In this document: piece by piece, positions 47,340-64,000 of the stretch
Numbering within the stretch: the first letter of the stretch is position 1
How the letters are laid out: every line of letters starts with the position of its first letter
Source: Bdellovibrio sp.
GTDB lineage: Bacteria; Bdellovibrionota; Bdellovibrionia; Bdellovibrionales; Bdellovibrionaceae
Assembly (NCBI GenBank): GCA_036676395.1
Contig: JAKFCY010000003.1
Span: 512,001-576,000 of the forward strand
Direction of reading: 5' to 3'
DNA: 64,000 nucleotides
Notes under the pieces: model-generated
The model's database searches: none
Told to the model about the DNA's origin: nothing
Seen by the model: only the letters and a program-made list of their open reading frames with translations
Program-made: the position numbers and the translations under genes

Positions 47340-47538
47340 CTGTTCTCCTCTTTAAAGTGGATGTTCACCACGAACATCCCGCAACTTAAGCATAGTACGG
47401 TCTAGTCGAGAGTTAAGAAGTATTACTGGTTCCAGACTGAAACTGGGCAATGGTCTAGTTTATGCGGCTCAGAGCCAATAGGATTTTTAATAGGTACTTG
47501 CAGGGAATAGGAGTACAATTACTGAGTACAAACTTAAT

Positions 47539-47891
47539 GGGGGTGTACTGGCTTCGACGTGGGTCGTGAAGCAAAGGGAGCATACCGGGGCGCATGTGGA
47601 CCTCGATAAAAACGTGCATATTACAATTGCTAACAACAATTATCAATTAGCAGCTTAGTTCTGTTAACGGATTTGGCGTAGGTCGACGGTGTCGATGCCT
47701 GATCCGACGATAATGCCGTCTCGGACTTCACTGGTTTCTCTGGAGTGAAGTCTTAATAGTTATCCAGGGGATTGGTGTTCAGAATTTTGTTTGTGGAAGT
47801 CTGAGCACCTTAATTAAAACATAAACTAAGTATGTAGCGCCTTTTCGTGGATCTCTTGCGGACCCGGGTTCAATTCCCGGCACCTCCACCA
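47539..47891 (+). ncRNA. ssrA: tmRNA; tag reading frame ANNNYQLAA* at 47629-47658
   Basis: 5' GGGGGTG...TTCGAC pairs with 3' CACCTCC-ACCA with a G3-U wobble; T-arm CCGGG-TTCAATT-CCCGG; tag ending LAA. Confidence 0.97.
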
Positions 47892-47904
47892 ATTTTTTAG
47901 TTAG

Positions 47905-47945
47905 AACCCGAACGTCCACGTAGGATTTTCGGGTTTTTCTTTTTT
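47905..47945 (+). terminator. ssrA terminator
   Basis: AACCCGAA...TTCGGGTT followed by a T-tract. Confidence 0.8.
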
Positions 47946-48018
47946 AAAATACTATTTTGATAAGTTATATTAACTGTATATGGAGGTTATTAGAAATCGA
48001 ACCCTCAGAGCACTCATT

Positions 48019-48990
48019 TTATTCTTTAGCGTTATCGTTATCACCTGGTAGATTTTCTGGATTTTGCGGAGCTGTTAATAGCAATACTTCTTTGGTTGAT
48101 TCGAGAAGTTTCTTTGATTGATCTTCTACTTGAGCACTACAAGCTACTTCAATTTTTTTCGTAATAAGTGGAATTTCGAGGTCAGAGCCACGTTCAAATA
48201 AATCACTTAAAGCCTCAAGTGATTTATTATATCTAATCAAAGCTTCATTCCCGTCTGGTGTGCCCAGAATTCCATACTCCTGGGCTAATGATACTGAGAG
48301 TCTTTGTTTCAAATAGGAATTTTTAAGTTTGTTGGTTTCAGTTAAAGATTTAATATACTCAGTTGTGGCTTCGGTTAACTGAGTAGTTGATTCTACGCCT
48401 TTGGTTTTTGCGATTTCAGTTTTTAATTTTTGATTCTCATTGGCAATTTCCATTGCACCTTTTACGACGTCTAGAAAAGTTTTTAAACCGTCTCCAATTA
48501 TTTTAAGAATTAGCCAATCTGTTCCGGTATCGACTCCACGAAATTCAATTTGAGGAGCCTTAGCGTTGCCGGAAAATAATTGAGAGAAGCTCTTCTCCAA
48601 AATATCTATATCTTCTTTTAAATCACTTAAATTTCGCTCTTGAGGCAATTTGAAATATACGAAGCCTTTTTCGGGTTTTTTAACCGCTTGATCTAGAATT
48701 TGATTCGCTTGATTCGCGAGTGATATTAAGATGTTTGTTCTGTTTTGAATAGTTTTATGTAATTCGCTTGAAACATTATCGAGCATTTTATCGTCTTTTA
48801 CGACAGGCAGACTTGCAATTAATTGCATGGCTGCAATTTTAAGTGCGGCAATTTGTGATAAATTTTCTGCAGCTGACTTTAACGTTAGCAAACCAGAAAT
48901 AGCAAAGCTATTACCTAAACTGTTTTGTGATTTCAAGATAATTTTATCTAAGTTGTTAATGATAATTTCTTGCATCTTGGATAATCGCAT
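48019..48990 (-). CDS. Hypothetical protein, helical/coiled-coil
   Basis: Long ORF, AGGTGG RBS before ATG 48990. Confidence 0.75.
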   Translation of the reverse strand: MRLSKMQEIIINNLDKIILKSQNSLGNSFAISGLLTLKSAAENLSQIAALKIAAMQLIASLPVVKDDKMLDNVSSELHKTIQNRTNILISLANQANQILDQAVKKPEKGFVYFKLPQERNLSDLKEDIDILEKSFSQLFSGNAKAPQIEFRGVDTGTDWLILKIIGDGLKTFLDVVKGAMEIANENQKLKTEIAKTKGVESTTQLTEATTEYIKSLTETNKLKNSYLKQRLSVSLAQEYGILGTPDGNEALIRYNKSLEALSDLFERGSDLEIPLITKKIEVACSAQVEDQSKKLLESTKEVLLLTAPQNPENLPGDNDNAKE

Positions 48991-49238
48991 AAGGCCACCT
49001 TGTGTAAATAAAAACATATCGACATAAAAAAGTAAAAGTTTAGAAAATCCTTTATATCCAATTGTTCATTTCTGAGATTAAATCCGAACGATTGGAACAT
49101 AATAAATTTTAGTTTAGTAATTTTGAATCCGAATAGCTTCATACAAAGAAAATCAGCACATTTGAAGTATGTGCTGATTTTCTTATTCATGAGTGCCACT
49201 AAATATTAAAATTTTCGATTCACTCACTTGGGAGCAAT

Positions 49239-49934
49239 ATGAAAAACGCTACTAAGTCAGATCTTGCGAAGATTTTCCTGACGGCAATTCATAATGAAGA
49301 AATTGGTTTATCACGTCTAAATGTCTTACATGCGGCTACTCAAAGTTTGAATGGGATAGCTTCTGATCTATTACAGATTGGTACTTCTCGGCAAGATACG
49401 TTGATCTTATCTTGTGCACTTTTATCCCGTCTTGCCACTGAGTTAATTGATGGAATTTTTACGATGTTTAAACAAGGAAATGAATATTCGGCAGCATGTC
49501 TGCTTCGGCAACTGGTCGAAATTGAATATTTATTTTTTCTTGGCTATTCAAATCCACAAAACTTAAATAAATGGTATAATGCTAGCCCTGAAGAACTCCG
49601 AAAGAAATTTACTCCCCAAAAAATGCGAAAAGAAGCTGATGGATTATTTAGCGATCAAGAATATTGGCATCATTGCGAAGTCGGTGGACACCCCCATCCC
49701 AACTCAATAGTAATGTTGCGAGAATATGCTGGAGGCGGAGTTCCAGCAGCATTCCTTCATCCTGATTCGGCTCATCATGTAAGACGATTATGGACATCTT
49801 TGCGCCTATTATTACCAAAAATAGATTGTGCTGCAGTACTCGATAAACACAAAGATCCATTGGTTGAAGCTATAAGGGATTGGGAGACTAAGGAAGATCC
49901 GACGATTTTGAAGATAGATGGCCTTAATCATTAA
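49239..49934 (+). CDS. Hypothetical helical protein, DUF5677/HEPN-like
   Basis: YSAACLLRQLVE and Y..HCE..GHP motifs; family call tentative. Confidence 0.55.
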   Translation: MKNATKSDLAKIFLTAIHNEEIGLSRLNVLHAATQSLNGIASDLLQIGTSRQDTLILSCALLSRLATELIDGIFTMFKQGNEYSAACLLRQLVEIEYLFFLGYSNPQNLNKWYNASPEELRKKFTPQKMRKEADGLFSDQEYWHHCEVGGHPHPNSIVMLREYAGGGVPAAFLHPDSAHHVRRLWTSLRLLLPKIDCAAVLDKHKDPLVEAIRDWETKEDPTILKIDGLNH

Positions 49935-50037
49935 ATATAAGTGTTTGCTCCTCGGCTACTGTTCTATTCTGGACTACCCCTTTTTTATAAATAAATTAAT
50001 ATTTGTTCTTGAGCTTAAAATGATTCAAGGTGGGCTT

Positions 50038-51135
50038 GTGAGCGATTACGAAGAAAAAGAAGAGAAAGTACGTCGAGATAAGATAGAACTTTCGGAAGAA
50101 GAATTTGAAAAAGGTAGGCAGGAAATTCTTTTTGCCGTCAATTCAGCTAGAAATAATAAACTACAAGATAGAGTTGCTTGGATACTTAATCATTACCCAG
50201 CAGCTAGAGATTCAGACATAACACTTAGTTTAAGTTACTGGGAGCAATTTGAACCTGAATTTTTAGATGGTGAGGTAATTAAGAAGTTAAATCTTTTTAA
50301 ACTTACTAAAACTAATTCATTAACTCGAGAACGAGCGCGTATTCAAAATGTCTATAAATTGTATTTAGCAAGTGATAAAGTTCGAAAGCATCGTGGAAAA
50401 TTAGAAGAAGATCAGTATGCGGCGGCGATATCGGAGCAGCCTAATTTTCCTGTATCAGTAGTTTATGCGGACGAAAGTGGTAAGAATGATAAGTTTTTAA
50501 TTGTCGGCAGTCTTTGGATTCTTAATGGTCGCGAAGCCTTTCGCCTTCAGCAGCAAATTGAGGCCTGGAAAATTCAAAAATGTATAACTTATGAGTTTCA
50601 TTTTGCGGAATTAAAAAAACAGCAATTAGAAGAATACAAAGAGCTAGTTGATCTTTTGCATGCGGAATCTGCTTTACTAGGTTTCAAAGGAATGTTTGTA
50701 GAACGTGCGGGGACAGGGCATCAGTCTGAAGTATATGGCGATCTATTTTATCACTTAATTGTAAAAGGTATCGAACATGACCATGGTAAAAATAGGGCGC
50801 CACTGCCCAGAACTATTCAATTTTTGAAAGATCAAGAGAGTACGGGTGGCGATAAGCTTCTATTGGCTAATTTAAAAGATCGATTGCAACAGGTTTCTGT
50901 AAATAAATTCGATAAAAAATTATACATAGACCAGATTGAAGCGATGGACTCAAAGGCATTGATACATCTGCAGCTCACAGATTTATTTACTGGTTCAGTT
51001 AATCGACATTTAAATCATAATAACGATGTTAAGAATCATAAAGATGAATTTGCGGATTATTTTATAGATAAATTTCGCATCAAAAGAAAAAAGCTTTCTG
51101 GTGAAGATGTTACTGCCTTACTTAGTTTTGATTAA
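50038..51135 (+). CDS. DUF3800-like (RNase H-like fold) protein with extra N-terminal domain
   Basis: YADESG, EFHF, DS...LQLTDL; AAGGTGG RBS before GTG 50038. Confidence 0.75.
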   Translation: MSDYEEKEEKVRRDKIELSEEEFEKGRQEILFAVNSARNNKLQDRVAWILNHYPAARDSDITLSLSYWEQFEPEFLDGEVIKKLNLFKLTKTNSLTRERARIQNVYKLYLASDKVRKHRGKLEEDQYAAAISEQPNFPVSVVYADESGKNDKFLIVGSLWILNGREAFRLQQQIEAWKIQKCITYEFHFAELKKQQLEEYKELVDLLHAESALLGFKGMFVERAGTGHQSEVYGDLFYHLIVKGIEHDHGKNRAPLPRTIQFLKDQESTGGDKLLLANLKDRLQQVSVNKFDKKLYIDQIEAMDSKALIHLQLTDLFTGSVNRHLNHNNDVKNHKDEFADYFIDKFRIKRKKLSGEDVTALLSFD

Positions 51136-51271
51136 AGCTACTAGTTGATTAAGGTAACGCATTAGCAAGTGAGATAGTCTAACAAAGCAGAAGGCCGAGC
51201 GAAGTTAAGTGATTAAGTCACTTATTCGAATCTATGTAGAAGTTTTTTATTTGTAGGGTAAGGTATATTAT

Positions 51272-52135
51272 ATGGAAGAAATAAAAAGGTCTCGAAAAGC
51301 GCTTATTCTTTTTCCTCAGTCTAAGCTAGGAAAAATAATTTTGTACCTAATCTTGGGTGCTAAAGTTTTGATGTATGTGGTCAGGGCATTTACGCTGCCG
51401 GATAAAACTCTGACGGCTGATCCTAGCCTGCTGTCTTTGATTGGTATGTTAATAGATATTATAAGTGTTGTTAGTGTTGATCTTATTATCATGTGGATTG
51501 CGCGCTGGATACTTGTAAAAACTAAAATATTGGAAGTGCAGAATACTGATAAGACTGAGTTTAGCCGTCTCTTTGCGGCGATAGTTGGTATCATTCTTAT
51601 CAGTTCAATTGCTATTCCGATTTTCGTTAGTGGCGGTTTTCCGTTAAAGAAGACGTCATCTCCTACTTCTAATGTCGATAATCTTTCTTCTGAAGAAAAG
51701 GCAAGATTTCGGGAGATTATGACTGCTGTAATACAATCTAATGAGAATTTGACAGCAGAAATTCATTCTGAGTTTTGGATATTGTTGCGAAAAATGGGAG
51801 TTCGCGAAGAAGGACAAATCGCACAGCTTAAGGACGTAATGACAGGCGCTTCTGGAAAATATCAAAGATATGTTTGGGAAGATGCGCAGAAATCATTGCG
51901 AGAAGGTCGCGTATTCAAATCACCAGAACGAGAAGCATATGAAAAATATCTTCAGTCAATTGGTATGACCGAAGATCGTCGCATTCAGAACGATGAGTTC
52001 ATAAAGAAAATAGCAAATAAGATTGCGATCCCAATTCAAGGAGAAAATGTGGTTATGAACGAAGAAATGATTAAGGAAATACTTTCTAATCTTGCTAGTG
52101 CGACTGCGAGAATAGACAAACTTTTTACCCCTTAA
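51272..52135 (+). CDS. Membrane protein (about 3 TM plus soluble domain)
   Basis: Three hydrophobic segments in the N-terminal half. Confidence 0.7.
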   Translation: MEEIKRSRKALILFPQSKLGKIILYLILGAKVLMYVVRAFTLPDKTLTADPSLLSLIGMLIDIISVVSVDLIIMWIARWILVKTKILEVQNTDKTEFSRLFAAIVGIILISSIAIPIFVSGGFPLKKTSSPTSNVDNLSSEEKARFREIMTAVIQSNENLTAEIHSEFWILLRKMGVREEGQIAQLKDVMTGASGKYQRYVWEDAQKSLREGRVFKSPEREAYEKYLQSIGMTEDRRIQNDEFIKKIANKIAIPIQGENVVMNEEMIKEILSNLASATARIDKLFTP

Positions 52136-52291
52136 GTGATTTGTAGAAATAGAAATTCATGAGCAGTATTTTTCATCAGGTAAAGAGTTTTATAGATCAG
52201 ACATTGTTGAGAGATTTAAAAATTATTTTTTGGTTATGTAAGCCATACATATATTTTGGCGATTACAAAGATTAAGAGAGGGATAAGGTTT

Positions 52292-52420
52292 ATGAAAGGT
52301 ATTGTTGCGAATATCAATCAATGTCGTGGAATGGTTGCAGTAAAAACTAACAAGTATATGATTTTTGTGATTCAAGATTCATCAGTAATGAAAGCTCCGA
52401 TATTGAGAGATGAAATTTAA
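52292..52420 (+). pseudogene. Short ORF or gene remnant (MKGIVANINQCRGMVAVKT...)
   Basis: 42 codons with an AAGG RBS, abutting the next ATG; below the ORF-track cutoff. Confidence 0.35.
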
Positions 52421-52981
52421 ATGGATTTGACTTCAATAGTTAACATCATTTCTGCGATTGTAATTGGCATTCTTACTTTCTTGATATGGAGAGCAACACA
52501 AGCTCAGGCAGAGACTACAGATGCGTTGCGTGCAATAGAAACTCAGCGTGACTTCGCAGAAGATCCAAGAGTATTTATTTGCATCGATGGTTATCATCCA
52601 GACACCCAGGTAGCTAGTTTTGTCATGCAAAACTCAGGCAAGAAGAGTCTGTTTCTTCGGTCCTTGCAAATTTACTCTTCTGGAATGGAAGTAGAAATGT
52701 TTAACATGGAAATGGGATCTAAAAATGATCGAATGATGGTCCCAAGACAAGAAATTCGTGATTTAGTTATTACACCAGATAAAACCGAAAAATTTTATTT
52801 CAAACTTAACGGCAGTGGCCAGCACTTCGAGTTATTGGCTCAACTTTATACCGGCAATCCGGTTCGCCTTAAAATGAACCCATCCTACTATAACGGATAT
52901 GAATTGCGCGCTATAGGCGGAACTGAACTTAAAGCCTACTTTAAGGGTAGGGAGTTAAATAAAAACGGTGATGCTAGTTAA
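52421..52981 (+). CDS. Single-TM hypothetical protein
   Basis: N-terminal TM followed by a beta-rich domain. Confidence 0.7.
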   Translation: MDLTSIVNIISAIVIGILTFLIWRATQAQAETTDALRAIETQRDFAEDPRVFICIDGYHPDTQVASFVMQNSGKKSLFLRSLQIYSSGMEVEMFNMEMGSKNDRMMVPRQEIRDLVITPDKTEKFYFKLNGSGQHFELLAQLYTGNPVRLKMNPSYYNGYELRAIGGTELKAYFKGRELNKNGDAS

Positions 52982-53014
52982 TTAGATTAGTCAGAAAAAT
53001 AAATAGGAGCGATT

Positions 53015-53218
53015 ATGGATTCTAAAAAAGAAAATACTCAACGAATTACTGTGGGAGAGTTGATTGACCACTTAAAAGTTTTTGATAAAGATTCGGAAGT
53101 GATTTTTGGTAATGAGGAAATAAGTTTTTATCGAACGAAGTATAGGGGAGAAAAACTTGTTCAGATTGAGTTTAATGAAATAATACTTGATGGAAAGATT
53201 ACTAGACTCACGGAATAG
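53015..53218 (+). CDS. Small hypothetical protein
   Basis: AGGAG RBS; ITVGELIDHLK motif common in small phage/island proteins. Confidence 0.65.
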   Translation: MDSKKENTQRITVGELIDHLKVFDKDSEVIFGNEEISFYRTKYRGEKLVQIEFNEIILDGKITRLTE

Positions 53219-53292
53219 AAGACTCATTATAAAAGTACGTATGATGCAGGGTGGTTTGAAGTTACCCATTCTAACCTAAAAGGAGAGTTGGC

Positions 53293-53849
53293 GTGGATCA
53301 AAAAAAGTTAAAAATTGCGTACCATGAAACAGGTCATGCGGTTATGGCATTGATTTGTGGCCAAGATATACAGAAGGTTTCGCTTAGAGAAATGGACTCG
53401 CCTTTAGGAACAGATAAGTATCTTGCGTCTGCGTCACTTGAACCCTTCAGGCAAGAGCCGACTATTACGATTAACGAATCTAATCGGAGAATCATGATCT
53501 GGTTGGCAGGCTTTACAGGAGATGGATTATTTTCTGAGGGCGTAATCAGTAATTTCGGCGGTGACGACTTAATGAGGGCAACACGTTGGATTGAAAATAT
53601 GTTAGAAAACGAAATGTTTAGAAGTTTCGCAGAGCAGTTACCAGACCCCGCACCAGGTACATTAGATTTGATTGAGAACCTTCTGGTTAGACGATACATC
53701 GACTATATGATGCAAAAGTGCTTTGAGACACTGGGGCCGCTAAAACCGACAATTAAGGAATAGCTGAAGAATTGTATCGACGTGAGGAACTCACAGGAGA
53801 TGAGATCTCTGCCCTTTTCAATTCTTTTATGCAGTCGCGCCTATATTAA
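53293..53849 (+). pseudogene. Stand-alone M41 (FtsH-type) metallopeptidase-like gene, frameshifted near 53760
   Basis: AYHETGH, LAG, GGDD; C-terminal IAEELYRREELTGDEI continues in another frame to TAA 53847-53849. Confidence 0.7.
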
Positions 53850-53913
53850 GTTTAAGCTATTTCAAAAGCCTTGAAATTAGGCTAGAATAGCCAGGTACAC
53901 AAAAGAAGTGGGC

Positions 53914-54008
53914 TGCGGACATCATGGTTCGGCAATCGAGTCTCCACCTCCACCAATTTTTTAGTTAGAACCCAGATGTCCGCAAAGGATTTCTGCGTTC
54001 TCTTTTTT
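53914..54008 (+). repeat. Damaged copy of the ssrA 3' end plus terminator (att-like)
   Basis: 29-bp exact match of 53945-53973 to 47881-47909; upstream TGCGGAC...GGTTC; terminator with compensatory changes. Confidence 0.9.
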
Positions 54009-54048
54009 CAGACGTCAACGTCGCACGATGAACTAATCTCTATTTTTT

Positions 54049-54555
54049 TCAGACATATCGATGCATTCTTTTCTCCTGCAATTCAGTCTTGAGGTCGCAA
54101 CTTGTCAGTCGAAGCATTAAGATTGAACTCGAAATGCATTTTGTGTCGTGGATATCGCCGGGCAAGTAAACCCGACTTTCACCCGCCGTCATTCGGTACT
54201 TTTCACGTCGAACTATTTCGATGTTACCTTGCCGCTCAGTGCGCCCATAGGTTCCCATTTCAATTTCGCCTCGTTGAACAGCGTAGATGACCCATCCGTT
54301 TCCATGATCATGAGGGTGTCGATACAACCCCTCGTTTTCTGTGTGCGCTAAAAGAATGAATCCATGTTCGGGATCTCGATACAGTTCGCGGCTTTCATCA
54401 AGATCTTCTTTTAGAGCTGCTAGCCACGGTTCAGAAATGGGTGCATGTACAAGATCTTCGAGCAAAGCCTGGGTTTTTATAACCAGTTTTGAATCTAATG
54501 GTCCCCATATTTTTCGAATCTCTTCGATGAATTTAGTTAGCGAATCTTTTTTCAT
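54049..54555 (-). CDS. Cupin / cysteine-dioxygenase-like protein
   Basis: PHDHG...W..Y...GE.E and PGDIH motifs. Confidence 0.75.
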   Translation of the reverse strand: MKKDSLTKFIEEIRKIWGPLDSKLVIKTQALLEDLVHAPISEPWLAALKEDLDESRELYRDPEHGFILLAHTENEGLYRHPHDHGNGWVIYAVQRGEIEMGTYGRTERQGNIEIVRREKYRMTAGESRVYLPGDIHDTKCISSSILMLRLTSCDLKTELQEKRMHRYV

Positions 54556-55754
54556 AAGTTCTCCTTTTTTGAGTGTTTGAGTTGATTGATTAGCAGAATG
54601 ACGATCAAGAAGGCCGCCATCGAGAAAGTGATTTGTAATCCAACTGAAATGTTTTTCTCAGCCGCATCGGAGACGCTTCCCATTAAGTAAGTGCCAGCGA
54701 TCAAGCCCAAGTTGCGCGAAAGATTTAGTGCGCCTGCTGCGATCCCGCGATGTTCGGTGCGAGCGTTTTGCATGAAGCTGTTTGAATTAGCGGATAAAAA
54801 AAGTTGGTAACCAAAACTTAGAAGAACTGCAGAGATTACAAATCCTAAAGATCCAAACTGCTTCGGTAAAAAAATAAATGAGATGCTTCCAACTAATACC
54901 TGCATAAATCCAAATTTAATAATGAGGCTGTAACCGAACCGATCGACGGCGTAACCAGCAACTATTCCAGAAAGAATTGATGTGATGGGACCCGCCGACA
55001 TAACAAGACCCATGTGGCCAGGATCAAGGTGCAAAGCATGAGTCAGATAAAAGGGGCCTATGATCAAAGTTGAAACCATAACGGCCGATACCGCAAAATT
55101 TGAAAACAGATGCATTCTAAACGAAGAGTCAGAGCAGAATGATTTGGCCGTATCGAAAAAGTTACTCTGTTGTTTGTTATGGCTTGAACTTTCACTAAGC
55201 CGAACGAACTTGAAAATTAATAAAAGAGTAAAAATTCCAAGCGCCACCATCGCAGAAAATATCGTGCGCCAGCCAAACTCTGCGATAAGCAATCCGCTGA
55301 TCAATGGACCTGTCGCGGTTCCTACGGCCGACATCGTAGCAAGAAATCCGATGGCCCGACCCATTTTCTGATCAGGCAAAGTATCTGTTATGATGGCGAT
55401 GGGAAGTACGGCAAGTGCTGCGGCGCCAATTCCTTGTATCACTCGACCGAAGATCAAGGCTGAGAATGAAAATGAAAAACTGGAAATAAACGTTCCGGCG
55501 CTAAACATGGCCGCTCCTAATAGAAGAATATTTCGTCGTCCGTTTAGGTCTGCGAGCCTACCTGCGACAAGACTAAATAATGTGATTGCCAATAGATACG
55601 AGAGAACGATCCATCGTACGGCCGAAAAAGAAAGTGAGAATTCCTCGGCGATAGACGGTAATGCAAGATTAGCCATGCTTGTGCCGGCCGAGACAAGAAG
55701 AGCCGATAAGGCCAGAGTTCCTACCAATAAGTTTTGTTTGCATCGTAATCTCAT
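54552..55754 (-). CDS. MFS efflux transporter
   Basis: GRLADLNGRR motif A, GRVIQGIG, GPLISG; ATG 55754. Confidence 0.9.
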   Translation of the reverse strand: MRLRCKQNLLVGTLALSALLVSAGTSMANLALPSIAEEFSLSFSAVRWIVLSYLLAITLFSLVAGRLADLNGRRNILLLGAAMFSAGTFISSFSFSFSALIFGRVIQGIGAAALAVLPIAIITDTLPDQKMGRAIGFLATMSAVGTATGPLISGLLIAEFGWRTIFSAMVALGIFTLLLIFKFVRLSESSSHNKQQSNFFDTAKSFCSDSSFRMHLFSNFAVSAVMVSTLIIGPFYLTHALHLDPGHMGLVMSAGPITSILSGIVAGYAVDRFGYSLIIKFGFMQVLVGSISFIFLPKQFGSLGFVISAVLLSFGYQLFLSANSNSFMQNARTEHRGIAAGALNLSRNLGLIAGTYLMGSVSDAAEKNISVGLQITFSMAAFLIVILLINQLKHSKKENL

Positions 55755-55760
55755 GATCCC

Positions 55761-55791
55761 AGTGTGCAACCTCAAGTGAACTTGAGTTCAA
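55761..55791 (-). promoter_or_regulatory. MerR-type promoter with SoxR-like operator
   Basis: TTGAAC-N19-CACACT enclosing the palindrome CTCAAGT-GA-ACTTGAG. Confidence 0.8.
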
Positions 55792-55852
55792 GTCTATTCT
55801 GGCAAAAATAGACTTTTTATTGGCTTTTATAGGTGTTTGCCTTAACCTGAGA

Positions 55853-55870
55853 CCTCAAGTTCAATTGAGG
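55853..55870. promoter_or_regulatory. Second MerR operator, probably autoregulatory
   Basis: CCTCAA-N6-TTGAGG, 6 nt before the regulator ATG. Confidence 0.7.
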
Positions 55871-55876
55871 TTAGAC

Positions 55877-56302
55877 ATGAAATCGAATTCTATAAATAAA
55901 ACGCTCGATATTGGTGACGTAGTTCAGTTGTCAGGGGTGCCCCCTTCGACACTTCGCTTTTATGAAGAGAAGGGTTTAATCCGATCAACGGGCCGTCATG
56001 GGCTAAGAAGGCTTTTCAATGCTCATGTCTTACAGCAGCTAGAATTTATTGCGCTGGGAAGACACGCTGGTCTAACTTTAGAAGATATTGCTTCGATGTT
56101 TACGACCGAAGGCGAACTTCAGGTCAGCAGAGAGTTTCTTTTCGAGAAGGCCAATGAAATGGAAAAGAGCATTCGCAAGCTTACTGCAGTTCGTAGCACT
56201 CTTTTGCATGTAGCCAAGTGTTCTGCGCCAAACCATATGGAATGTCCTAAATTTCAACGCTTACTGCGAGTCGCCGGTAAAAAGAAACATTCCCGCAGGT
56301 AG
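55877..56302 (+). CDS. MerR-family regulator
   Basis: LDIGDV...STLRFYEEKGLI HTH; C-terminal CSAPNHMEC. Confidence 0.92.
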   Translation: MKSNSINKTLDIGDVVQLSGVPPSTLRFYEEKGLIRSTGRHGLRRLFNAHVLQQLEFIALGRHAGLTLEDIASMFTTEGELQVSREFLFEKANEMEKSIRKLTAVRSTLLHVAKCSAPNHMECPKFQRLLRVAGKKKHSRR

Positions 56303-56313
56303 GTTGAGAAAGC

Positions 56314-56751
56314 TTAAAACATTGTATTATCGTTAGCGGCTTTTTCTGGAACCTCTTGAACGACATCCCAATGTTCGACTAGTTTTCCATTTTTGAGCCG
56401 GAAGATGTCCATGATAGCAAGTCCACGAGTTTTGTCATTTACCTTCCCATGAGCGTGCACGACGACCAAATCACCTTTTGCGATAATTCTTTTAATCACA
56501 ATTTTAGAGTCGGGATTTTTTTTGAACAGAGGTTCAAAAAATGCCACGAAGGCATCTGCTCCATTGGCAACAGAGGGATTATGCTGAATATAACTTTCTC
56601 CAAAATACTTCTGAGTTGCTTCGCGTGGCTTATGCTTGTTGAAGGCAAGTTCAAAGAAAGCGATAACGACTTTCTTGTTGGTTTCTTCAAGCTCACTGGC
56701 AAAGGAAATTTGAGAGAATGCAACCACGGCGATCGCTAAAATCATTTTCAT
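56314..56751 (-). CDS. SnoaL/NTF2-like protein with signal peptide
   Basis: YIQHNP, GDLVVVH, DIFR...EHWDV. Confidence 0.9.
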   Translation of the reverse strand: MKMILAIAVVAFSQISFASELEETNKKVVIAFFELAFNKHKPREATQKYFGESYIQHNPSVANGADAFVAFFEPLFKKNPDSKIVIKRIIAKGDLVVVHAHGKVNDKTRGLAIMDIFRLKNGKLVEHWDVVQEVPEKAANDNTMF

Positions 56752-56815
56752 TTTTATCTCCAACCTGGGAAATGTCCCAAAAAATTAATCCGAATAAGAA
56801 TAAAAAAATATAAGA

Positions 56816-57586
56816 TCATTTTGCTTCAGCCTTTAGCGCTTTTGCAACAGCTTCTCCAAAAGGCTTTGCCGATGGAGGATTCTGACCAGTAATCAGACGT
56901 CCATCGATTACGACTTTACTTTTTAAGATAGGTGCTTTTTCGAAAATAGCTCCAGCTTTTCTAAGAGCAGTTTCAAGATCAAATGGAATTAGTTTTTCAT
57001 ATTTGAGAGAGATTTCTTCTTCTTTAGTGAATGCTGTCAGTTTTTTGCCAGCAATAAGACTTTCACCATTGCTAAGTTTTACCTTAAGAAATCCAGCGGG
57101 ACCATGGCATACGGCACTCACAATTCCATTGTTTTCGTAAATGACACGTATGATGTTTTGCAGATCAACGTTGTCGACGAAATCAAACATGGGCCCATGT
57201 CCACCAACCAGTTGAATAGCATCATATTTTGTAGGGTCGATATCCGAAAGTTTTAGAGTGTTACCGAGTTTGTTTCGATATTTTGGATTAGTCCAAAACC
57301 ATAAATTCGCTTCATCTTTTAAATCAAAACCATCGAAGGGTGAAAGTCCTCCTTTAGGACTGACTATGTCGATATCAAAGCCAGCTTTATCATAAACCTG
57401 AACAGGATGAGTTAGTTCAGGAAACCAGAATCCCGCTACTAGGCCTTCGCCTTTCTTGTCTTGGCTTGATACCACTATGAGAATTTTCCTATTCTTATTT
57501 TCAGTACTTTTAGCCATTGAGATAGTTGAGAAAGATAAGAACATTGAGATGATGGCTGTTGTTATTGCAATTGAGTGCTTATTCAT
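56816..57586 (-). CDS. DJ-1/PfpI (class I glutamine amidotransferase-like) protein with signal peptide
   Basis: GFWFPEL, GGHGPM, AVCHGP, ITGQNP. Confidence 0.92.
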   Translation of the reverse strand: MNKHSIAITTAIISMFLSFSTISMAKSTENKNRKILIVVSSQDKKGEGLVAGFWFPELTHPVQVYDKAGFDIDIVSPKGGLSPFDGFDLKDEANLWFWTNPKYRNKLGNTLKLSDIDPTKYDAIQLVGGHGPMFDFVDNVDLQNIIRVIYENNGIVSAVCHGPAGFLKVKLSNGESLIAGKKLTAFTKEEEISLKYEKLIPFDLETALRKAGAIFEKAPILKSKVVIDGRLITGQNPPSAKPFGEAVAKALKAEAK

Positions 57587-57713
57587 TTTTTCTCCTAGTG
57601 ATAAATTACAGTGCTCATTATATATTGAAAAGTATTGCTTAAGAATCCCATCTTATCTAAACTGGCTGTTTAGATAAATTAAACAATGCCCTTTTTTTAA
57701 AAATGGACTAAGT

Positions 57714-58620
57714 ATGTCAAATAATGATCCTTTTAGTTATTTAAGTGTTTTTTTTTGAGGTCGCTAAACAACAAAGTTTTCGTGCAGCTGCGCGTTCTTT
57801 AGAATTAACACCGGGAGCGATTAGCCAAGCAATCTCAAGCTTAGAAAAGCGATTAGGTCGCTCACTATTTCATCGAACAACCAGAAAAGTTGCATTAACA
57901 GAAGATGGGCAAGCATTCTTAAACGAAACGCTGTCTGCTGCAGAAAAAATTGGATCTGCAGTTAAGACATTTAAGGAAAATGGAGGCACAGTCACCGGGA
58001 CGCTACGGCTAATTGTGGAGCCAGTTGCAGCCACGCATGTTATAGAGACCATTCTTCCTGTTTTACGATCTCAATGGCCGGACATCTCTGTTGAGGTGGC
58101 GGTGGAAGATGTTCATACGAATTTTATTTCATCTGGATTTGACGCCGGTATAAGAATTGGATCTTATATCGCCCCCGACATGATCGCGATAAAAGTTTCT
58201 AAAAAATTCAAATGGATTATTTTAGGAGCACCTTCTTATTTTAAAAAATATGGAAAACCTGTAACTCCGAATGATCTATTAAAACACCAGTGCCTTGGGT
58301 TAAGACGTCTCGAAAAAAGCGACGTTTACCATTGGGAGCTTGTCGATGGAAATAAAACAATTCGAATTAATCCAGGCAGAAGAGTTGTGGTCAACAATGG
58401 CAGGCTAATGCGTCGTCTTGCCGCAAGAGGAATGGGTTTGATTTACACTTCAATGTTACATGCTTCGGAAGAATTGGAATCAGGAGAACTTGTGCCAGTT
58501 CTACAGTCTTATATGCCGACCAATGCTGAGTCGCTTTATTTATACTTTACAAAAACAAATAGAAACCAACCGAAGCTAAGAGCCCTTATAGAATGTTGTA
58601 AATCGCTGCACTCAATATAA
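57714..58620 (+). pseudogene. LysR-family regulator with a +1 frameshift in a T9 tract (57748-57756)
   Basis: ATG 57714 reads MSNNDPFSYLSVFF then TGA; removing one T joins it to EVAKQQSFRAAA... to give a complete LysR HTH. Confidence 0.75.
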
Positions 58621-58788
58621 ACTTTTGCCCAGGACATAGCTCGACTGACTCGTTCTCAAGCGCTCCACCTCTTAAGATGAAGGTGAGTTTGTGTTTACCC
58701 TTTGAGTCTTCTGGCCCTACTCAAACTCGTCAGCCCAGAAATCGCTGCTTGAACCTGCTGTAAAATTTGAGGTCGATGTCGGTGCCAC

Positions 58789-58804
58789 TGGCATGCTCCC
58801 TGCT
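58789..58804 (+). promoter_or_regulatory. Sigma54-type promoter of the ATPase operon
   Basis: TGGCATGCTCCCTGCT. Confidence 0.6.
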
Positions 58805-58919
58805 AGTATGGAGTACTTATGATTTTTATCTTGCTGTTCATGAAGTTGAGAGATCGCGATGAGACAAAGTGGCTCAATCAACAGACTCAGCCGGTCATTT
58901 TGTCAGAAGGTTATTTGTT

Positions 58920-61637
58920 ATGAACAAGCCGAGGGCGTGGCACTCACTTGATTCTGATGAATGTATTAGATGGCTAAGTACTGACGCGATACATGGCCTC
59001 TCTCAAAGGGTTGCAGCCGAGCGTCTGCAACAATTCGGATCGAATGAATTACCAGAACCAAAGCGCCGTTCTCTTCTATCTATTGCTCTTCATCAATTTC
59101 TAAGTCCTCTTATCTATCTTTTGCTAGTTGCGGCCGGCATCGCATTTTTTATCGGTGAAGCCCGCGATGCCATTGTCATCCTGGTCGTGGTTTTTTTTAA
59201 TGCTATCATAGGTGCATTTCAAGAAGGGCGCGCGGAACAGTCGCTCGCCGCACTCCGGAAACTATCAAAGTTAAAAGCTCGTGTGATACGTGGCGGACAA
59301 GAGCAACTCATCGAAGCGGGCGATGTCGTCCCCGGTGATATCCTGCTTCTTAGCTCGGGAGAAGCAGTTGCCGCTGATGCGAGACTCGTTGAGGCCTCAT
59401 CAATTGCAGTCGCTGAGGCTGCTCTTAGCGGCGAGTCCTTACCCGTGCGCAAGTTCGTTGAGCCACTTGTGGAAAATACGGTTCTCGCTGATCGACATAA
59501 TATGATTTATGCTGGCACTCACATTACAGCGGGACGAGGACTTGCCGTTGTGATCTCAACAGGTGTGAACAATGAGATTGGTAAAATCGCAAACCTCGCG
59601 ACCACGACTTTGCAGCCAAAGACCCAGCTGGAATTGCGAATCAGACAATTTGGAAAATACCTTGTCTTTGCGGCACTTGTTGTTTTTGGGCTTGTCGTTG
59701 CAATTGGCCTCTGGCGCAATATCGCCTTCTCGCAGATTTTTATGATCGCCATCAGTCAAATGGTGTCACTCGTACCAGAAGGCTTGCCGGTGGCAATGAC
59801 CATTGCGCTCGCGGTTGGCGTTCAGCGTATGGCTCGCCGAGGAACAATTGTCCGAAGACTCGCTGCAGTTGAAACCCTGGGTTCAACGACTGTTATATGT
59901 AGCGATAAAACCGGAACACTCACTCGCAATGAAATGGCAGTGACCGCCATTTATTTACCATCCAAGAAACGAGAAATTACCGTCGCAGGAGTCGGGTATG
60001 CCCCAGAGGGATATTTCGAGGAAAGTGGGCATAAACTTACGACTCAACTTGATGAAACATTACAGAAGCTTTTTGTCGCGAGTGTTTTGTGCAATGATGC
60101 TCAGCTGCTTGGCCCTGACGCCTTAGCTAATCAATGGCGGATTGTTGGCGACCCGACAGAGGGAGCGCTTCTTACGATGGCTGCAAAAGGTGGAGCTGAC
60201 ATAACCTCCCTTAAAAGACAATATCAAAGAAAAGCAGAGCTGCCGTTCGACTCAGATACTAAAATGATGGCAACCCAGCACACGATAAATACCAATAGCA
60301 TAGTATTTATTAAAGGAGCTCCAGAGACGTTACTAAGATACTGTGGCTCAGTATTTCACGATGGATGCATCGAGAAATTTGATGAGACGATTCTTGCCGA
60401 AGTTCAAAAAGCTTCCGAAAAAATGGCGAATTCGGCTCTTCGATTATTAGCGATCGGGCTTGTTGAAAATGCTTTCATTGATGGTTCGAAAGGTTTTGAG
60501 CCCTTTATGGGAAAGATCACATTAATTGGTTTGATTGGCGAACTTGATCCACCAAGAACCGAAGTGGCGGATTCGATCAGGGAATGTAAGGTCGCTGGAG
60601 TTAAACCTGTTATGGTTACCGGTGATCATAAAGCCACCGGGCTCGCCATAGCACGTGCGCTTGGCATCAGTCGAGATAATGATCTGGCGATTGATGGTCA
60701 AGAGCTTGATTTGTTATCGGATGCCGATCTTGCAGAAAAAATAAGTCGCATCAGTGTCTTTGCGCGCGTGCATCCTTCGCAAAAATTACGGATCGTCGAA
60801 GCCTTTCAAAAGCGAGGTGAAATAGTGGCAATGACCGGAGATGGCGTCAACGATGCCCCTGCTCTGGTGCGTGCAAATGTCGGAGTCGCTATGGGCATCA
60901 CAGGAACTGAAGTCGCCAAAGAAGCCGCGAAAATAGTAATCACCGACGATAACTTTTCAACCATAGTAACTGCTATTTCGGAAGGTCGGCTTGTCTATCA
61001 GAATATTAAAAAGTTAATTCTCTTTCTATTTGTAACCTCGATCGATGAAGTCGCAATACTTTTTTTGGCATTGATTCTTGGCTATCCGCCCCCGTTAGCG
61101 GCTGTTCAAATTCTATGGATCAATTTGGTGGCGGAAGGCACTTTAACCGTCAATCTTATCATGGAGCCAGCAGAGGGTGATGAGATGAAGCGGGCACCAA
61201 TCCCAGTGACACAATTACTATTAGATCGCGCCCTTCTATCACGGATTCCGCTGCTGGTAATTACAACCGTAATTTCTACGTTCGGGTGGTTTACCTATCG
61301 GATTTCGATGGGAGTTTCCCCGGATGTCGTGCAAAGCGAAACCTTTACGATACTTGTTGTATGTCAATGGTTCAACGTACTCAACTGCCGCTCAGCTACA
61401 CACTCAGCATTGACTTGGGATATTCTTAAGAATCCTTGGCTCTTGGGTGGATTAGTCATTAGCAATCTTCTTCAGGCTGCTGTCATCTATTGGCCGCCGC
61501 TAAGCCAGTTCTTTCATACGGTGCCAATCGATACAGCTCAGTTCTTTGCTATCGGAGCTGTGGCAAGTCTTGTTCTTTGGGCTGAAGAGGCACGAAAATT
61601 TATTGTAAGAAATAACATTTTTAACAGGTTCGCTTAG
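58920..61637 (+). CDS. Type II cation-transporting P-type ATPase
   Basis: SGES, PEGL, DKTGT, KGAPE, TGD, GDGVND; start ATG 58920 (or GTG 58869). Confidence 0.95.
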   Translation: MNKPRAWHSLDSDECIRWLSTDAIHGLSQRVAAERLQQFGSNELPEPKRRSLLSIALHQFLSPLIYLLLVAAGIAFFIGEARDAIVILVVVFFNAIIGAFQEGRAEQSLAALRKLSKLKARVIRGGQEQLIEAGDVVPGDILLLSSGEAVAADARLVEASSIAVAEAALSGESLPVRKFVEPLVENTVLADRHNMIYAGTHITAGRGLAVVISTGVNNEIGKIANLATTTLQPKTQLELRIRQFGKYLVFAALVVFGLVVAIGLWRNIAFSQIFMIAISQMVSLVPEGLPVAMTIALAVGVQRMARRGTIVRRLAAVETLGSTTVICSDKTGTLTRNEMAVTAIYLPSKKREITVAGVGYAPEGYFEESGHKLTTQLDETLQKLFVASVLCNDAQLLGPDALANQWRIVGDPTEGALLTMAAKGGADITSLKRQYQRKAELPFDSDTKMMATQHTINTNSIVFIKGAPETLLRYCGSVFHDGCIEKFDETILAEVQKASEKMANSALRLLAIGLVENAFIDGSKGFEPFMGKITLIGLIGELDPPRTEVADSIRECKVAGVKPVMVTGDHKATGLAIARALGISRDNDLAIDGQELDLLSDADLAEKISRISVFARVHPSQKLRIVEAFQKRGEIVAMTGDGVNDAPALVRANVGVAMGITGTEVAKEAAKIVITDDNFSTIVTAISEGRLVYQNIKKLILFLFVTSIDEVAILFLALILGYPPPLAAVQILWINLVAEGTLTVNLIMEPAEGDEMKRAPIPVTQLLLDRALLSRIPLLVITTVISTFGWFTYRISMGVSPDVVQSETFTILVVCQWFNVLNCRSATHSALTWDILKNPWLLGGLVISNLLQAAVIYWPPLSQFFHTVPIDTAQFFAIGAVASLVLWAEEARKFIVRNNIFNRFA

Positions 61638-61669
61638 CGATCATATTAACGTTTCTGGAGGAATAATAA

Positions 61670-62338
61670 ATGACGAAAGTACCTAAAAAATCAGACTCCA
61701 ATTTGAAATCTGAAGAAAAGCTTGAAGGCGTCGAAGGCACGAAGTCAGAACGACCGCCGCATTACTCATGGTCTACTCGCCATCTTCTTCTTGTGGTAGC
61801 GCTGTTGATTACTGTTGCTTTAGTGATCGTTCTCTCTACAGCCCCATTTGCCGCAATTCTAGGACCAAGCCACCATGCTTTGGCGGCAGCACTGCACGGG
61901 CTGTTCTCTTTTCTGTTTTTGGTCGTATCCACAGTGGGTCTCTATCTTGCCTTTCGACTTTTTACAGGAAGGATCCGTTCGTTTCCCGATCTTCAACTGG
62001 CTTCAACGACGATGGCGGTACTATCGCTGATCACAATCGTCTTTGGTAATTGGATTTACATCGCCTACCGTGCCAAAGATCCGAAAGCCCCGCGAACTTA
62101 TTTTCTAGAGAACATGCCCGAAGTTCACAAAGTGTTCTTCGAGTTTAAGGAATTCGCGGCCCTCTTTACGTTACCGCTTTCAGTGGCGGCAGCATTTATT
62201 CTCTGGCGATATGGCAGTGAAATCCTAGACAAGACGTGGACGCGCAAGGCGGTTTCAATCCTGATCGCGCTAAACTTTTTTTATCTCATGATTGCTTTTG
62301 GCCTGGGGGCCGCTGTGGCTAAGCTCAAGGGCATTTAA
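61670..62338 (+). CDS. Multi-TM membrane protein with two His near TM boundaries
   Basis: GGAGG RBS; LHG, WIYIAYR, VHKVFFEFKE. Confidence 0.75.
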   Translation: MTKVPKKSDSNLKSEEKLEGVEGTKSERPPHYSWSTRHLLLVVALLITVALVIVLSTAPFAAILGPSHHALAAALHGLFSFLFLVVSTVGLYLAFRLFTGRIRSFPDLQLASTTMAVLSLITIVFGNWIYIAYRAKDPKAPRTYFLENMPEVHKVFFEFKEFAALFTLPLSVAAAFILWRYGSEILDKTWTRKAVSILIALNFFYLMIAFGLGAAVAKLKGI

Positions 62339-62357
62339 CAAAGAAAGGGGACTGCTT

Positions 62358-62735
62358 ATGTCTAATCAAGTAAAAACGACTTCATCTCAGAGGATCCCAA
62401 ATGGGGCCGCGATCGCAGCCTATCTCTCGGCCATGATCGGTCTCTTGGTGCTTTCCCTTTCTGCTTTATTATCGGAAATCTCAGAGCCCATGAAGAATTG
62501 GATTCACGAAGTTGGTAAACTTTGGATTCTAGGAGCAGAAGGCATTGGTCCTTATTCCGGAAAAGAAACGCTTGGTCTTGTCGGGTGGCTTTTCAGTTGG
62601 CTCATTCTCAATAAGGTTCTGCGAAAAAAAGAACTGAGTGGCGGTTTTTGGCTAGTAATATTTCTGGTTGGAATCGGTATTGCGACTACGCTGATATGGC
62701 CACCTATCTGGGCGATTTTCGGGGCTACGCACTGA
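62358..62735 (+). CDS. Three-TM membrane protein
   Basis: AGGGG RBS before ATG 62358; NGAAIAA and GPYSGK motifs. Confidence 0.7.
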   Translation: MSNQVKTTSSQRIPNGAAIAAYLSAMIGLLVLSLSALLSEISEPMKNWIHEVGKLWILGAEGIGPYSGKETLGLVGWLFSWLILNKVLRKKELSGGFWLVIFLVGIGIATTLIWPPIWAIFGATH

Positions 62736-62760
62736 GTTGGCAGATCAAATATTGGGAGGA

Positions 62761-62808
62761 TGCGGACAGCAGGGTTCGACAATTGAAATTTCTCTACCAC
62801 CAATTTTT
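62761..62808 (+). repeat. Second damaged copy of the ssrA 3' end
   Basis: 37/48 ungapped identity (counted by hand) to 53914-53961; TGCGGAC...GGTTCG...CCACCAATTTTT. Confidence 0.75.
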
Positions 62809-62848
62809 GCGAACTAGTAATTGCAATTGCTTGCGCTGACTTTAGATC

Positions 62849-62864
62849 TGGCTCAAGCTATGCT
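62849..62864 (+). promoter_or_regulatory. Sigma54-type promoter
   Basis: TGGCTCAAGCTATGCT. Confidence 0.5.
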
Positions 62865-62894
62865 TCGGGACCAGATCAATAAAGGAAAGTTTCT

Positions 62895-63581
62895 ATGTTT
62901 AATAGCCCAGTTACCGAAAGCCAGCTTCACAGGCTGATGTCTGTTCAGCCAAAGTCAGCGATCGACATTGGCTGCGGAGATGGCTCGCTTTTAAATTGGT
63001 TGAGTGGGCAGTTTTCGACATCAGGAATGGGTGTTGATAAAGACGAAGCTGAAATCGCAAACGCGAATTCTAACTCTTCTGGCAAACAGCTTCAGTTCTT
63101 GGCTCGCTCATTTGATGTTAATGACTTTAAGGATAAAAAATTTCAGCTCGCTGCGTGTATCGGTTCAACTCACATATTCGCAGAGGGAGAACTAGCCCTA
63201 AAGATGGCTCTTGAAGGAATGAAGCCTCTTACCGAAAACGGTGGCTTTATCTTGATTGGCGACTGCTACTGGCGAAAAGAACCTTCTTCTGAATATCTTA
63301 AAATTTTTGGTGGCTCGCCTCCAGCCTATCGAAGTCACCAGGATAATATCGAACTTATTCATCAAGCAGGCTTGAAACTGATCTCATCGGATGAATGCTC
63401 GACCGAGCAGTGGGATGATTTCGAAAGTCGTCATCAAAAAAAACTCAAAGCTCGTTTTTCACAAATCTCGGATAACGAAGAAAGAGCAAAAAAAGAGAAA
63501 TTTTTAGAACTTTGGAATCACCATTATGAAAAATGGGGACGAGAGACTTTAGGTTTCGGGCTTTATCTAGCTCGCACTTGA
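62895..63581 (+). CDS. Class I SAM-dependent methyltransferase
   Basis: IDIGCGDG motif I, GVD, ACIGSTH. Confidence 0.9.
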   Translation: MFNSPVTESQLHRLMSVQPKSAIDIGCGDGSLLNWLSGQFSTSGMGVDKDEAEIANANSNSSGKQLQFLARSFDVNDFKDKKFQLAACIGSTHIFAEGELALKMALEGMKPLTENGGFILIGDCYWRKEPSSEYLKIFGGSPPAYRSHQDNIELIHQAGLKLISSDECSTEQWDDFESRHQKKLKARFSQISDNEERAKKEKFLELWNHHYEKWGRETLGFGLYLART

Positions 63582-63596
63582 TTGAAGCCGCAGTTA

Positions 63597-64000
63597 TTAC
63601 TTTGGAATAATCAATTGTAAATCTTGTAATCGTACAGACTTTCCTTTTTTAGAAACCATCTTAGTCTGGATAGAAACATCAGACTGATCTCTAGCATCGA
63701 CTAATCTTACGCATTTTTCATTGGGTTTAAAAAGGTGCCGCGTACTCCATTCTCGGATGAGTATAAGAGCTGGTAAAAGCTCTACACCATTTGGTGTAAG
63801 TGCGTATTCATGTCTACGCGCAGTCTCAGACACTAAGCGTTTTTCAAGAATACCAAACTCTACCAGCTTAGTCAGACGCTGGGTCAGGGTATTTCTGGGG
63901 ATTCCCAGATTAAGATGAAAATCATCAAATCGCGTGACCCCCGCAAAAGCTTCTCGAAGGATCAATAATGACCACCATTCTCCGATGACATCGAGTCCAC
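63597..64000 (-). CDS. HxlR-family winged-helix regulator, 5' end outside the window
   Basis: LDVIGEWWSLLILREAF.G..RF, L..RL..LV..GIL, EYALT. Confidence 0.9.
   Translation of the reverse strand, partial: GLDVIGEWWSLLILREAFAGVTRFDDFHLNLGIPRNTLTQRLTKLVEFGILEKRLVSETARRHEYALTPNGVELLPALILIREWSTRHLFKPNEKCVRLVDARDQSDVSIQTKMVSKKGKSVRLQDLQLIIPK

Follow-up and report, generated by a model that had tools for sequence, protein, structure and literature searches.

Islands of the P4 type, such as CP4-57 of Escherichia coli with its pseudo-ssrA attR, carry a tyrosine integrase and reside at ssrA, the gene for transfer-messenger RNA (tmRNA). In Dehalococcoides, 31 tandem islands have been described behind a single tmRNA gene, bounded by a 20-bp ssrA repeat that has a conserved 15-bp motif, not alignable with ssrA, directly upstream of each occurrence (McMurdie et al. 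2011; PMC3146451). Of these islands, 16 hold a serine-integrase module beside attL and the other 15 are proposed to be mobilizable in cis; the T-loop is the site of crossover, and DsiB, a large serine recombinase encoded antisense next to attL, serves as the integrase (PMC3146451). Cis-mobilizable elements (CIMEs) are by definition without integration and transfer genes, keep attL and attR, form tandem arrays at the 3′ end of a target gene, and need the integrase of a related element (PMC5704250). The present report concerns two altered copies of the ssrA 3′ end behind the tmRNA gene of a Bdellovibrio sp., both located in a 64,000-nucleotide stretch of its genome that we call the window (G000:C3:512001-576000, where G000 is the 3.4-Mb assembly of this genome). 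We consider it fairly probable that these copies are attR-type junctions of two islands from one family that targets the ssrA 3′ end, now decayed, in the manner of CIME-like tandem islands.

The locus follows the same logic as known ssrA islands and differs in its own island-side motif. Like the Dehalococcoides islands, it combines tandem islands behind a tmRNA gene, repeats of the ssrA end, a conserved motif of non-ssrA sequence preceding the repeat, and units without an integrase. Unlike those islands, it is identical to ssrA only over the last ~11 nt and in two islands of similarity, its motif is ~31 nt long, mimics the target and lengthens the “arm” by 7 nt, the crossover would be 3′-terminal, the recombinase is only a candidate and possibly of the tyrosine type, and arrays do not exceed two units. 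The blocks also resemble CIMEs in that they are flanked by the ssrA end and the motif and hold neither recombinase nor transfer genes. They depart from the CIME definition in that mobilization in cis is only putative, no cognate integrase is found in G000 with the integrase of a relative (G225) as query, and strain differences are not att-to-att events. The earlier note on this DNA had proposed an undescribed system; integrase-less islands stacked at ssrA, with att repeats and an island-side motif, already appear in the accounts cited (PMC3146451; for the definition of CIMEs, PMC5704250).

Altered ssrA ends behind the tmRNA gene

The tmRNA gene lies at 47539-47891 on the plus strand (coordinates are window positions unless a contig is named), where ARAGORN predicts it with the tag ANNNYQLAA and Rfam RF00023 matches with 180.5 bits. 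Its neighbors are a lipase gene and a gene for a DUF4423 protein. The native ssrA end consists of TGCGGAC, a 17-nt T-arm and CACCTCCACCA, followed by ATTTTT, and a hairpin terminator comes next. This terminator (termN, 47892-47945, plus strand) comprises an AGAACCC hairpin and a T-run and is 99% identical to the terminator behind the displaced ssrA end of G018, the closest relative of G000.

Two pseudo-3′-ends lie downstream, at 53914-53961 (copy 1) and 62761-62808 (copy 2). Both retain TGCGGAC and CCACCAATTTTT, and in both the arm is 24 nt of non-ssrA sequence, compared with 17 nt in the native gene. A gap-free alignment of the two copies shows identity at 37 of 48 positions (16 of 24 in the arm alone). 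Pattern search and alignment therefore confirm what the earlier note had described, altered ends with both flanks kept. The portion of each copy that we refer to as the module, delimited by sequence patterns and alignment, spans 53914-53955 in copy 1 and 62761-62802 in copy 2, both on the plus strand; it is more decayed in copy 2, where the acceptor part reads CTCTACC. When the whole genome was searched with a strict pattern for the flanks, four matches were found: besides the native end and both copies, there was an unrelated site, on contig C2. The exact arm core occurs in the whole assembly at the two copies only, and thus there are no further copies beyond the window.

The direct repeat of the ssrA 3′ end amounts to an exact 29-nt run at copy 1 (CACCTCC through AGAACCC) and to 12 nt at copy 2. 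After the 29-nt run, copy 1 continues into a diverged version of the ssrA terminator (term′, part of a segment at 53956-54043, plus strand, recognized by alignment), beyond which a foreign convergent gene has its 3′ end. The sequence of term′ is ~79% identical to termN and is nearer to the terminator behind the module of G225. The sequence TTTTTTCAGAC occurs twice here, at 54003 and 54044.

Each copy had been said to begin shortly 3′ of a co-oriented gene. This holds for copy 2, which according to the list of open reading frames (ORFs) starts 25 nt past a co-oriented 147-aa membrane ORF. For copy 1, the spacing of 64 nt holds only when an M41-like metalloprotease-domain gene (53293-53849, plus strand; Pfam and comparison with G016) is read through a frameshift near its 3′ end to a stop codon at 53847-53849, whereas the uninterrupted ORF ends at 53763. 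The homologue in G016 shows that 53847-53849 is the original end of the gene.

The module in other genomes

The module is ~42 nt long and consists of TGCGGAC, 5 nt, an almost invariant core (GGGTTCGACAATCGA), 10 variable nt, and CCACCA. In total, 13 instances were found, in 10 genomes of Bdellovibrionota belonging to at least six GTDB families and on two metagenome contigs. Because the same module recurs in these 13 instances, the arm is, by this comparison of sequences, a conserved module and not a private decay product, in agreement with the earlier proposal that the two copies are homologous to each other and did not arise by independent decay.

An exact scan of 185,579 species genomes returned 58 loci, comprising five true homologues, all in Bdellovibrionota (L034, L039, L042, which is G016, L058, and L077), one doubtful case, and 52 chance matches in unrelated genomes. 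A metagenome scan gave 10 loci, three of them true homologues and one of these identical to L039, and three pattern matches in viral contigs included no true homologue. When up to two mismatches were allowed, 28 of 401 sampled genomes of the phylum matched (the reversed control pattern gave 6 matches), and inspection identified eight true homologues (G000, G377, G439, G035, G417, G284, G225, and G276). The module was present in 3 of 52 genomes of the genus; in the family, 7 of 182 genomes matched, of which five were true, with G445 as a new case, and two were rejected. The module is therefore rare, occurring in ~2-3% of genomes and at most twice per genome, whereas many copies downstream of ssrA had been anticipated.

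Pattern matches in G328 and G306 were judged not to be homologous: in G328 the match falls within an ORF of the opposite strand, and in G306 there is no similarity in the upstream arm or the acceptor part. A very decayed, module-like stretch behind an M41-like gene in G013 is doubtful and was left uncounted. This genome also holds a further ssrA 3′ fragment, which is divergent and has a T-arm that looks intact (G013:C159, L007, minus strand, ~7353-7461), 4.7 kb upstream of another M41-like gene, while its own ssrA is on a separate contig.

Two relatives within the genus carry further forms. In G016, another species, a third copy with the same arm (G016:C3:3134-3175) stands behind homologues of two genes from the DNA between ssrA and copy 1 (block 1), with 76% and 50% protein identity. 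In G018 the module is shortened, with the arm fused to the terminator.

Twelve instances were aligned without gaps, the one in G445 having joined the count later. In this alignment, the core departs from the consensus in 6 of 180 cells, CCACCA in 0 of 72, the 10-nt spacer in 27 of 120, and TGCGGAC in 21 of 84, compared with 123 of 216 for the sequence upstream of the module, where mean pairwise identity is 0.28. Homology stops exactly at CCA, and this boundary is sharp in all 13 instances. Judged by these counts, the module is real and under uneven constraint, but rare.

The core could form part of a hairpin of 8-9 bp, in which 91.7% of cells are paired (RNAalifold and pair counts) and which has a consensus energy of -4.05 kcal/mol. 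However, its covariation score of 0.150 equals the mean of shuffled alignments (0.153), and a compensatory change is found once, in one pair only. Among the aligned instances there is also no conserved upstream partner for the acceptor strand. Since covariation does not rise above that of the shuffles, it is the sequence and not the structure that is conserved, a pattern that favors a protein-binding DNA site over an RNA element or a folded site like attC.

Surroundings of the module

In five instances ssrA is on the same contig, and the module is downstream of it and co-oriented in all five, at distances of 6.0 and 14.9 kb in G000, 6.1 kb in G035, 5.2 kb in the complete Bdellovibrio genome G377, and 63 kb in G225. 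For the other eight, 1.4-4.5 kb of retrieved upstream sequence holds no ssrA, or ssrA is on another contig or unassembled. In the reading that we favor, the tmRNA gene is the primary attachment target.

In the instances checked, the module always lies 3′ of a co-oriented gene, 25-66 nt away. The cargo of the islands is unlike from one to the next and includes SIR2-like and IrrE-like genes, a trypsin-like protease with EamA/MarR, a kdp operon, AbiE, Fic, and AHSA1-like genes. All-against-all BLASTP between islands detected shared proteins only between block 1 of G000 and G016. The gene that directly precedes the module is M41-like in G000, G016 (L003:2519-3070), and G445 (L135, minus strand), which belong to two genera. 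It encodes the FtsH-protease domain only (Peptidase_M41-like, HEXXH) and is frameshifted in G000 and 5′-truncated in G445. Apart from this gene in three genomes, no backbone gene is common to the module-bearing islands. With hardly any protein in common, it is the module that constitutes their common element.

The sequence behind CCA can be compared with sequences that follow ssrA. One match, in L087, is to the flank of a Bdellovibrio ssrA. An AGAACCC-hairpin terminator stands behind copy 1 and behind the modules of G225 and G276, and the same type follows ssrA in G000, G016, and G018; in G225 and G276, the resident ssrA has flanks other than this terminator. These matches fit the idea that the sequence behind CCA behaves like whatever lay behind ssrA.

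A GC-rich stretch of ~115 nt occurs twice in G035 (L039:1935-2050 and 8095-8210, more than 93% identical between copies), once after the ssrA terminator and once after the terminator behind the module. The repeat around that island thus reaches beyond the att region.

Strain variability and gene content of the blocks

The region was compared with G018, whose flanks are 91-98% identical, and with contigs from an independent soil run, X5, which contains a strain that is 95-99% identical. Block 1 is a 6.1-kb insertion (47946-54050; delimited by the strain comparison) that is missing from both, the indel extending from ~47946/47949 to 54043/54054. The T-run of the terminator in G018 runs straight into the cupin gene, and a cupin/MFS/MerR trio lies directly behind the ssrA terminator, followed by the shortened module. 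The X5 contig joins 47948 to 54055 with four other bases between. Consequently, the indel encloses copy 1, the diverged terminator, and 41 nt of the foreign convergent gene end.

Block 1 carries orphan genes together with a defence-like gene for a 405-aa DUF3800 protein (49918-51135), which PADLOC assigns to the candidate defence family PDC-M04A (E 2.6e-15). The ssrA islands of relatives carry ThsB-TIR, Mrr/PDC-S02, SIR2-like, AbiE, and type I restriction-modification genes, and the ssrA locus is a hotspot for defence islands. At its left end, block 1 has ~35 nt in common with the ssrA flank of G016, plus a captured flank that duplicates part of a DUF454 gene, its promoter and ~14 initial codons (47961-48026, plus strand, by alignment). 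Specifically, 60 nt are 90% identical to G000:C3:585369-585428 (L005:9369-9428), where the full gene (G000:C3:585388-585768) lies 25 kb downstream; G018 has the distal copy only.

Behind block 1 follow a cupin-like ORF (minus strand), an MFS transporter gene (minus), and a MerR regulator gene (plus) at 54049-56302, shared at 91% with G018. The SnoaL-like, DJ-1/PfpI, and LysR genes at 56313-58632 are absent from G018, in which the whole of 56313-63488 is missing, and are kept at more than 99% identity in the X5 strain, in which 58633-63603 is replaced by 1229 other bases. This last segment contains a P-type ATPase gene (58869-61637), two membrane ORFs, copy 2, and a methyltransferase gene (62895-63581). 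Its G+C fraction is 0.45-0.50 and that of block 1 is 0.34-0.37, compared with 0.39. The blocks are truly strain-variable and compositionally foreign. They hold 7 and 9 ORFs on both strands and have their own MerR and LysR regulators.

Within the ATPase gene, positions 60216-61483 show extra contig depth, with many loose ends at 60825-60867, in all runs; the source is P-type ATPase genes of other organisms, through a conserved motif. The only other RNA genes in the window at the Rfam gathering score are those for the signal recognition particle RNA (37926-38024, minus strand) and tRNA-Val (16657-16732).

Further indels of the region lack any copy, including those at the lipase gene upstream of ssrA, at the HxlR/ADH/SDR genes, and others. 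The class-3 lipase gene (lipase_3, 46434-47339, minus strand) is missing from G018 and the X5 strain (indel 46399-47524), the X5 contig joining 46398 to 47525 with 24 other bases; thus the upstream side of ssrA is also an indel site. On this side, G018 has an 8.2-kb cluster between the DUF4423 gene and ssrA that is missing from G000 (L001:2467-10631), with genes for a cbb3-type oxidase (CcoN/O, FixP, and FixG-like), a P-type ATPase, and a Crp regulator.

Recombinases

No integrase, transposase, or phage structural gene was detected between 47.9 and 64 kb with Pfam, PHROGs, PADLOC, or tblastn with integrases of the genus, in agreement with the earlier note. That note had also looked to a conserved recombinase at the end of the array, which was not found: Pfam reveals no recombinase in the 10.3 kb beyond the window, and genome-wide scans with PF00589 and PF00239 give no above-cut-off match near the array on contig C3. 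In G000 as a whole there are four full-length tyrosine-recombinase matches, two more that are partial or weak, and a single resolvase; each of them lies on another contig or at a great distance from the array. The G000 blocks likewise contain no transfer genes. A hidden integrase among the orphan ORFs was considered and rejected, as PHROGs, PADLOC, and low-threshold Pfam searches gave only defence-like matches (DUF3800/PDC-M04A, SIR2-like, Mrr/PDC-S02, and RmrA-like).

Some relatives do carry recombinases in association with the module or with ssrA. In G276, a partial tyrosine integrase gene, cut by the contig start, is co-oriented and 2.7 kb upstream of the module; its product is 43% identical to the integrase of an integrative and conjugative element (ICE) in G225 and 37% identical to the ssrA-adjacent integrase of G003. 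In G225, the ICE, which has TraG/VirB4-like, TrbI, and FtsK-like genes, has its integrase gene 24.5 kb upstream of the module, and a 605-aa serine recombinase is encoded 9.5 kb upstream. The earlier note had named an origin in ordinary islands as a point against its proposal, and in G276 and G225 the module does lie downstream of an ordinary tyrosine integrase or an ICE. In G003, an HTH gene and a gene for a 407-aa tyrosine integrase come directly after ssrA, and the island ends in a short CCTCCACCA repeat, which points to a 3′-terminal crossover. The G003 island thus resembles P4-type islands in lying downstream of ssrA with a co-oriented integrase beside it and a displaced partial ssrA end at its far boundary. 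The G000 islands differ from P4-type islands in having no integrase and in that their far boundary is a conserved non-ssrA arm instead of a plain partial repeat. Similarly, G000 shares with site-specific islands at tRNA or tmRNA genes the distal direct repeat of the target 3′ end, but not an integrase within the island. The tyrosine integrase family of G276, G225, and G003 is a candidate for the recombinase that may act on the module.

An arrangement comparable to that of DsiB, as described in the account of Dehalococcoides cited above, is not present in G000 but exists in the genus, where it leaves a perfect 46-nt repeat. In G021, ssrA and a gene for a 519-aa large serine recombinase (L018:7935-9494) are convergent, and the final 21 codons of the recombinase gene are antisense to the ssrA 3′ end. 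A 10.3-kb island of G018 holds a 79-codon remnant of a G021-like serine recombinase gene (L001:11416-11652) and ends in the perfect 46-nt ssrA repeat, not in the module. When G000 was searched by tblastn with the serine recombinases of G021 and G225, nothing was found beyond the ssrA overlap. Several ssrA-targeting systems are therefore present in the genus, and that of G021 and G018 is a second, Dehalococcoides-like type of ssrA island.

Origin of the copies

In the model that we favor, the islands would insert into ssrA at its extreme 3′ end, within the acceptor strand and CCA. The resulting junction would have three parts: an island-side “expanded arm” of ~31 nt with the core GGGTTCGACAATCGA, a putative recombinase-binding sequence that loosely mimics the T-arm; a short crossover region ending in CCACCA; and whatever lay behind ssrA at that time. 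The other end of the island would supply a new terminator and thereby re-terminate ssrA after integration. Tandem arrays would then give junctions in which the arm and CCACCA are followed by the terminator of the older island, and copy 1 looks like such a junction. The islands of G000 would have lost any integrase, and their variation between strains would arise mainly by homologous or microhomology-mediated exchange of larger fragments.

For block 1, the most economical history has two steps. A canonical integration at CCA may have taken place in a related donor, and the terminator and cupin homologue behind copy 1 would then be those of that donor. The block may then have been transferred into the G000 lineage, anchored by the homology of ssrA and the terminator and closed at the microhomology of the T-run. 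Alternatives for this block are a deletion in G018 and the X5 strain, or an exchange between homologous terminators.

Several observations weigh against junctions formed by site-specific integration. The block-1 indel is offset from the CCA positions by 57 nt on the left and ~90-100 nt on the right, so that a simple exchange at the copies does not account for the most recent gain or loss of this block. Beside ssrA, the terminator is still present at the empty sites of G018 and X5. The indels that contain copy 2 extend 0.7-0.8 kb past it, to 63488 or 63603, and it is thus at no edge. In G000 and G377, ssrA is followed by a native-looking flank with no obviously foreign DNA, although the flank pattern of G377 is present in only 3 of 44 genomes of the genus. 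None of the four islands seen whole (two in G000 and one each in G035 and G377) contains a recombinase, and for this reason the recombinase is a candidate and not a finding. A cognate integrase is likewise missing from G000 and the complete genome G377 in searches with the G225 integrase (E ≤ 1e-25). Finally, the G225-type integrase family is found in 201 of the 401 phylum genomes and is so common that its 24.5-kb linkage to the module in G225 could be due to chance, leaving G276 as the sole close linkage.

The earlier note had placed block boundaries at the copies, whereas the block-1 indel encloses copy 1 and the indels around copy 2 extend past it. As read from these alignments, the recent events are exchanges of larger fragments, with which the copies travelled as passengers. 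Contigs of four runs contain no joint of the ssrA end to a copy, although contigs drop rare forms and circles.

Alternative explanations

These passenger-like movements lend some credence to a neutral explanation, in which a single displaced ssrA end, old and decayed, was duplicated and spread passively through composite islands and homologous recombination between relatives, with no present function as a site. The last transfer of block 1 would have taken copy 1 along 90-100 nt inside the fragment, and captured chromosomal flank is present at both ends of the block. Decay is evident in copy 2, in the shortened form of G018, and in the frameshifted M41-like gene, and this gene and the module travel together in three genomes. 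However, a neutral relic should decay evenly and keep its neighbors, whereas hardly any deviation is seen in the core (6 of 180 cells), in contrast to free variation in the spacer and in both flanks, and the sharp CCA boundary in 13 of 13 instances is combined with unrelated cargo across at least six families. Uneven conservation and unrelated cargo count against this explanation, which we judge to be unlikely.

Somewhat harder to credit is the possibility that the module is a live, dedicated recombination site found throughout Bdellovibrionota. Recombinase-less islands with defence, efflux, or ion-pump cargo would then be inserted and stacked behind ssrA by a recombinase supplied in trans from an ICE or the chromosome, and the unit of arm, CCACCA, and terminator would be a portable attP that re-terminates ssrA.

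The earlier note had favored a capture platform with integron-like logic, in which a recombinase acting in trans stacks cassettes behind ssrA, each with a dedicated tmRNA-mimic site. What stands of this proposal is a conserved non-ssrA sequence at integrase-less islands. The module is conserved beside unrelated cargo and always 3′ of a co-oriented gene, most islands seen whole have no recombinase, and the units of module plus terminator resemble complete sites. The likeness to an integron is one of logic only, units ending in a 3′ site and stacked behind one primary site. There are at most two copies per genome, and among 182 family genomes only five carry the module; no intI adjoins the primary site (no PF00589 match above the cut-off near ssrA), no conserved recombinase lies there or at the array end, and in G276 and G225 integrases are found in cis. 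The blocks are not single promoterless ORFs but multi-gene and bidirectional, with their own regulators, and are therefore not integron-like cassettes. The strain indels do not end at the copies, and a folded attC-type site is without covariation support. Every testable defining feature of an integron failed here, and the platform as proposed is very doubtful.

An element acting at the RNA level, whereby a tmRNA-like 3′ structure would end the upstream mRNA for stability or processing, is highly improbable, because its position just 3′ of a co-oriented gene, often before a terminator, and the well-paired hairpin that can be drawn are offset by covariation no better than in shuffles, the single compensatory change, the consensus energy of -4.05 kcal/mol, and the lack of a conserved upstream partner for the acceptor strand.

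Implications for Bdellovibrionota

As it stands, this locus adds one more case to the known traffic at the tmRNA gene. Since most carriers are without an integrase, there is some room, if little, for a capture system served in trans. If the module were indeed an active site served in this way, the concept of CIMEs and ssrA islands would reach a new phylum, with an unusual, target-mimicking site. The findings explain the region downstream of the tmRNA gene in these predatory bacteria as a strain-variable store of genes for defence, detoxification, and transport. In addition, the module provides a clean, phylum-specific marker of 42 nt for such islands in Bdellovibrionota and, eventually, for their recombinase.

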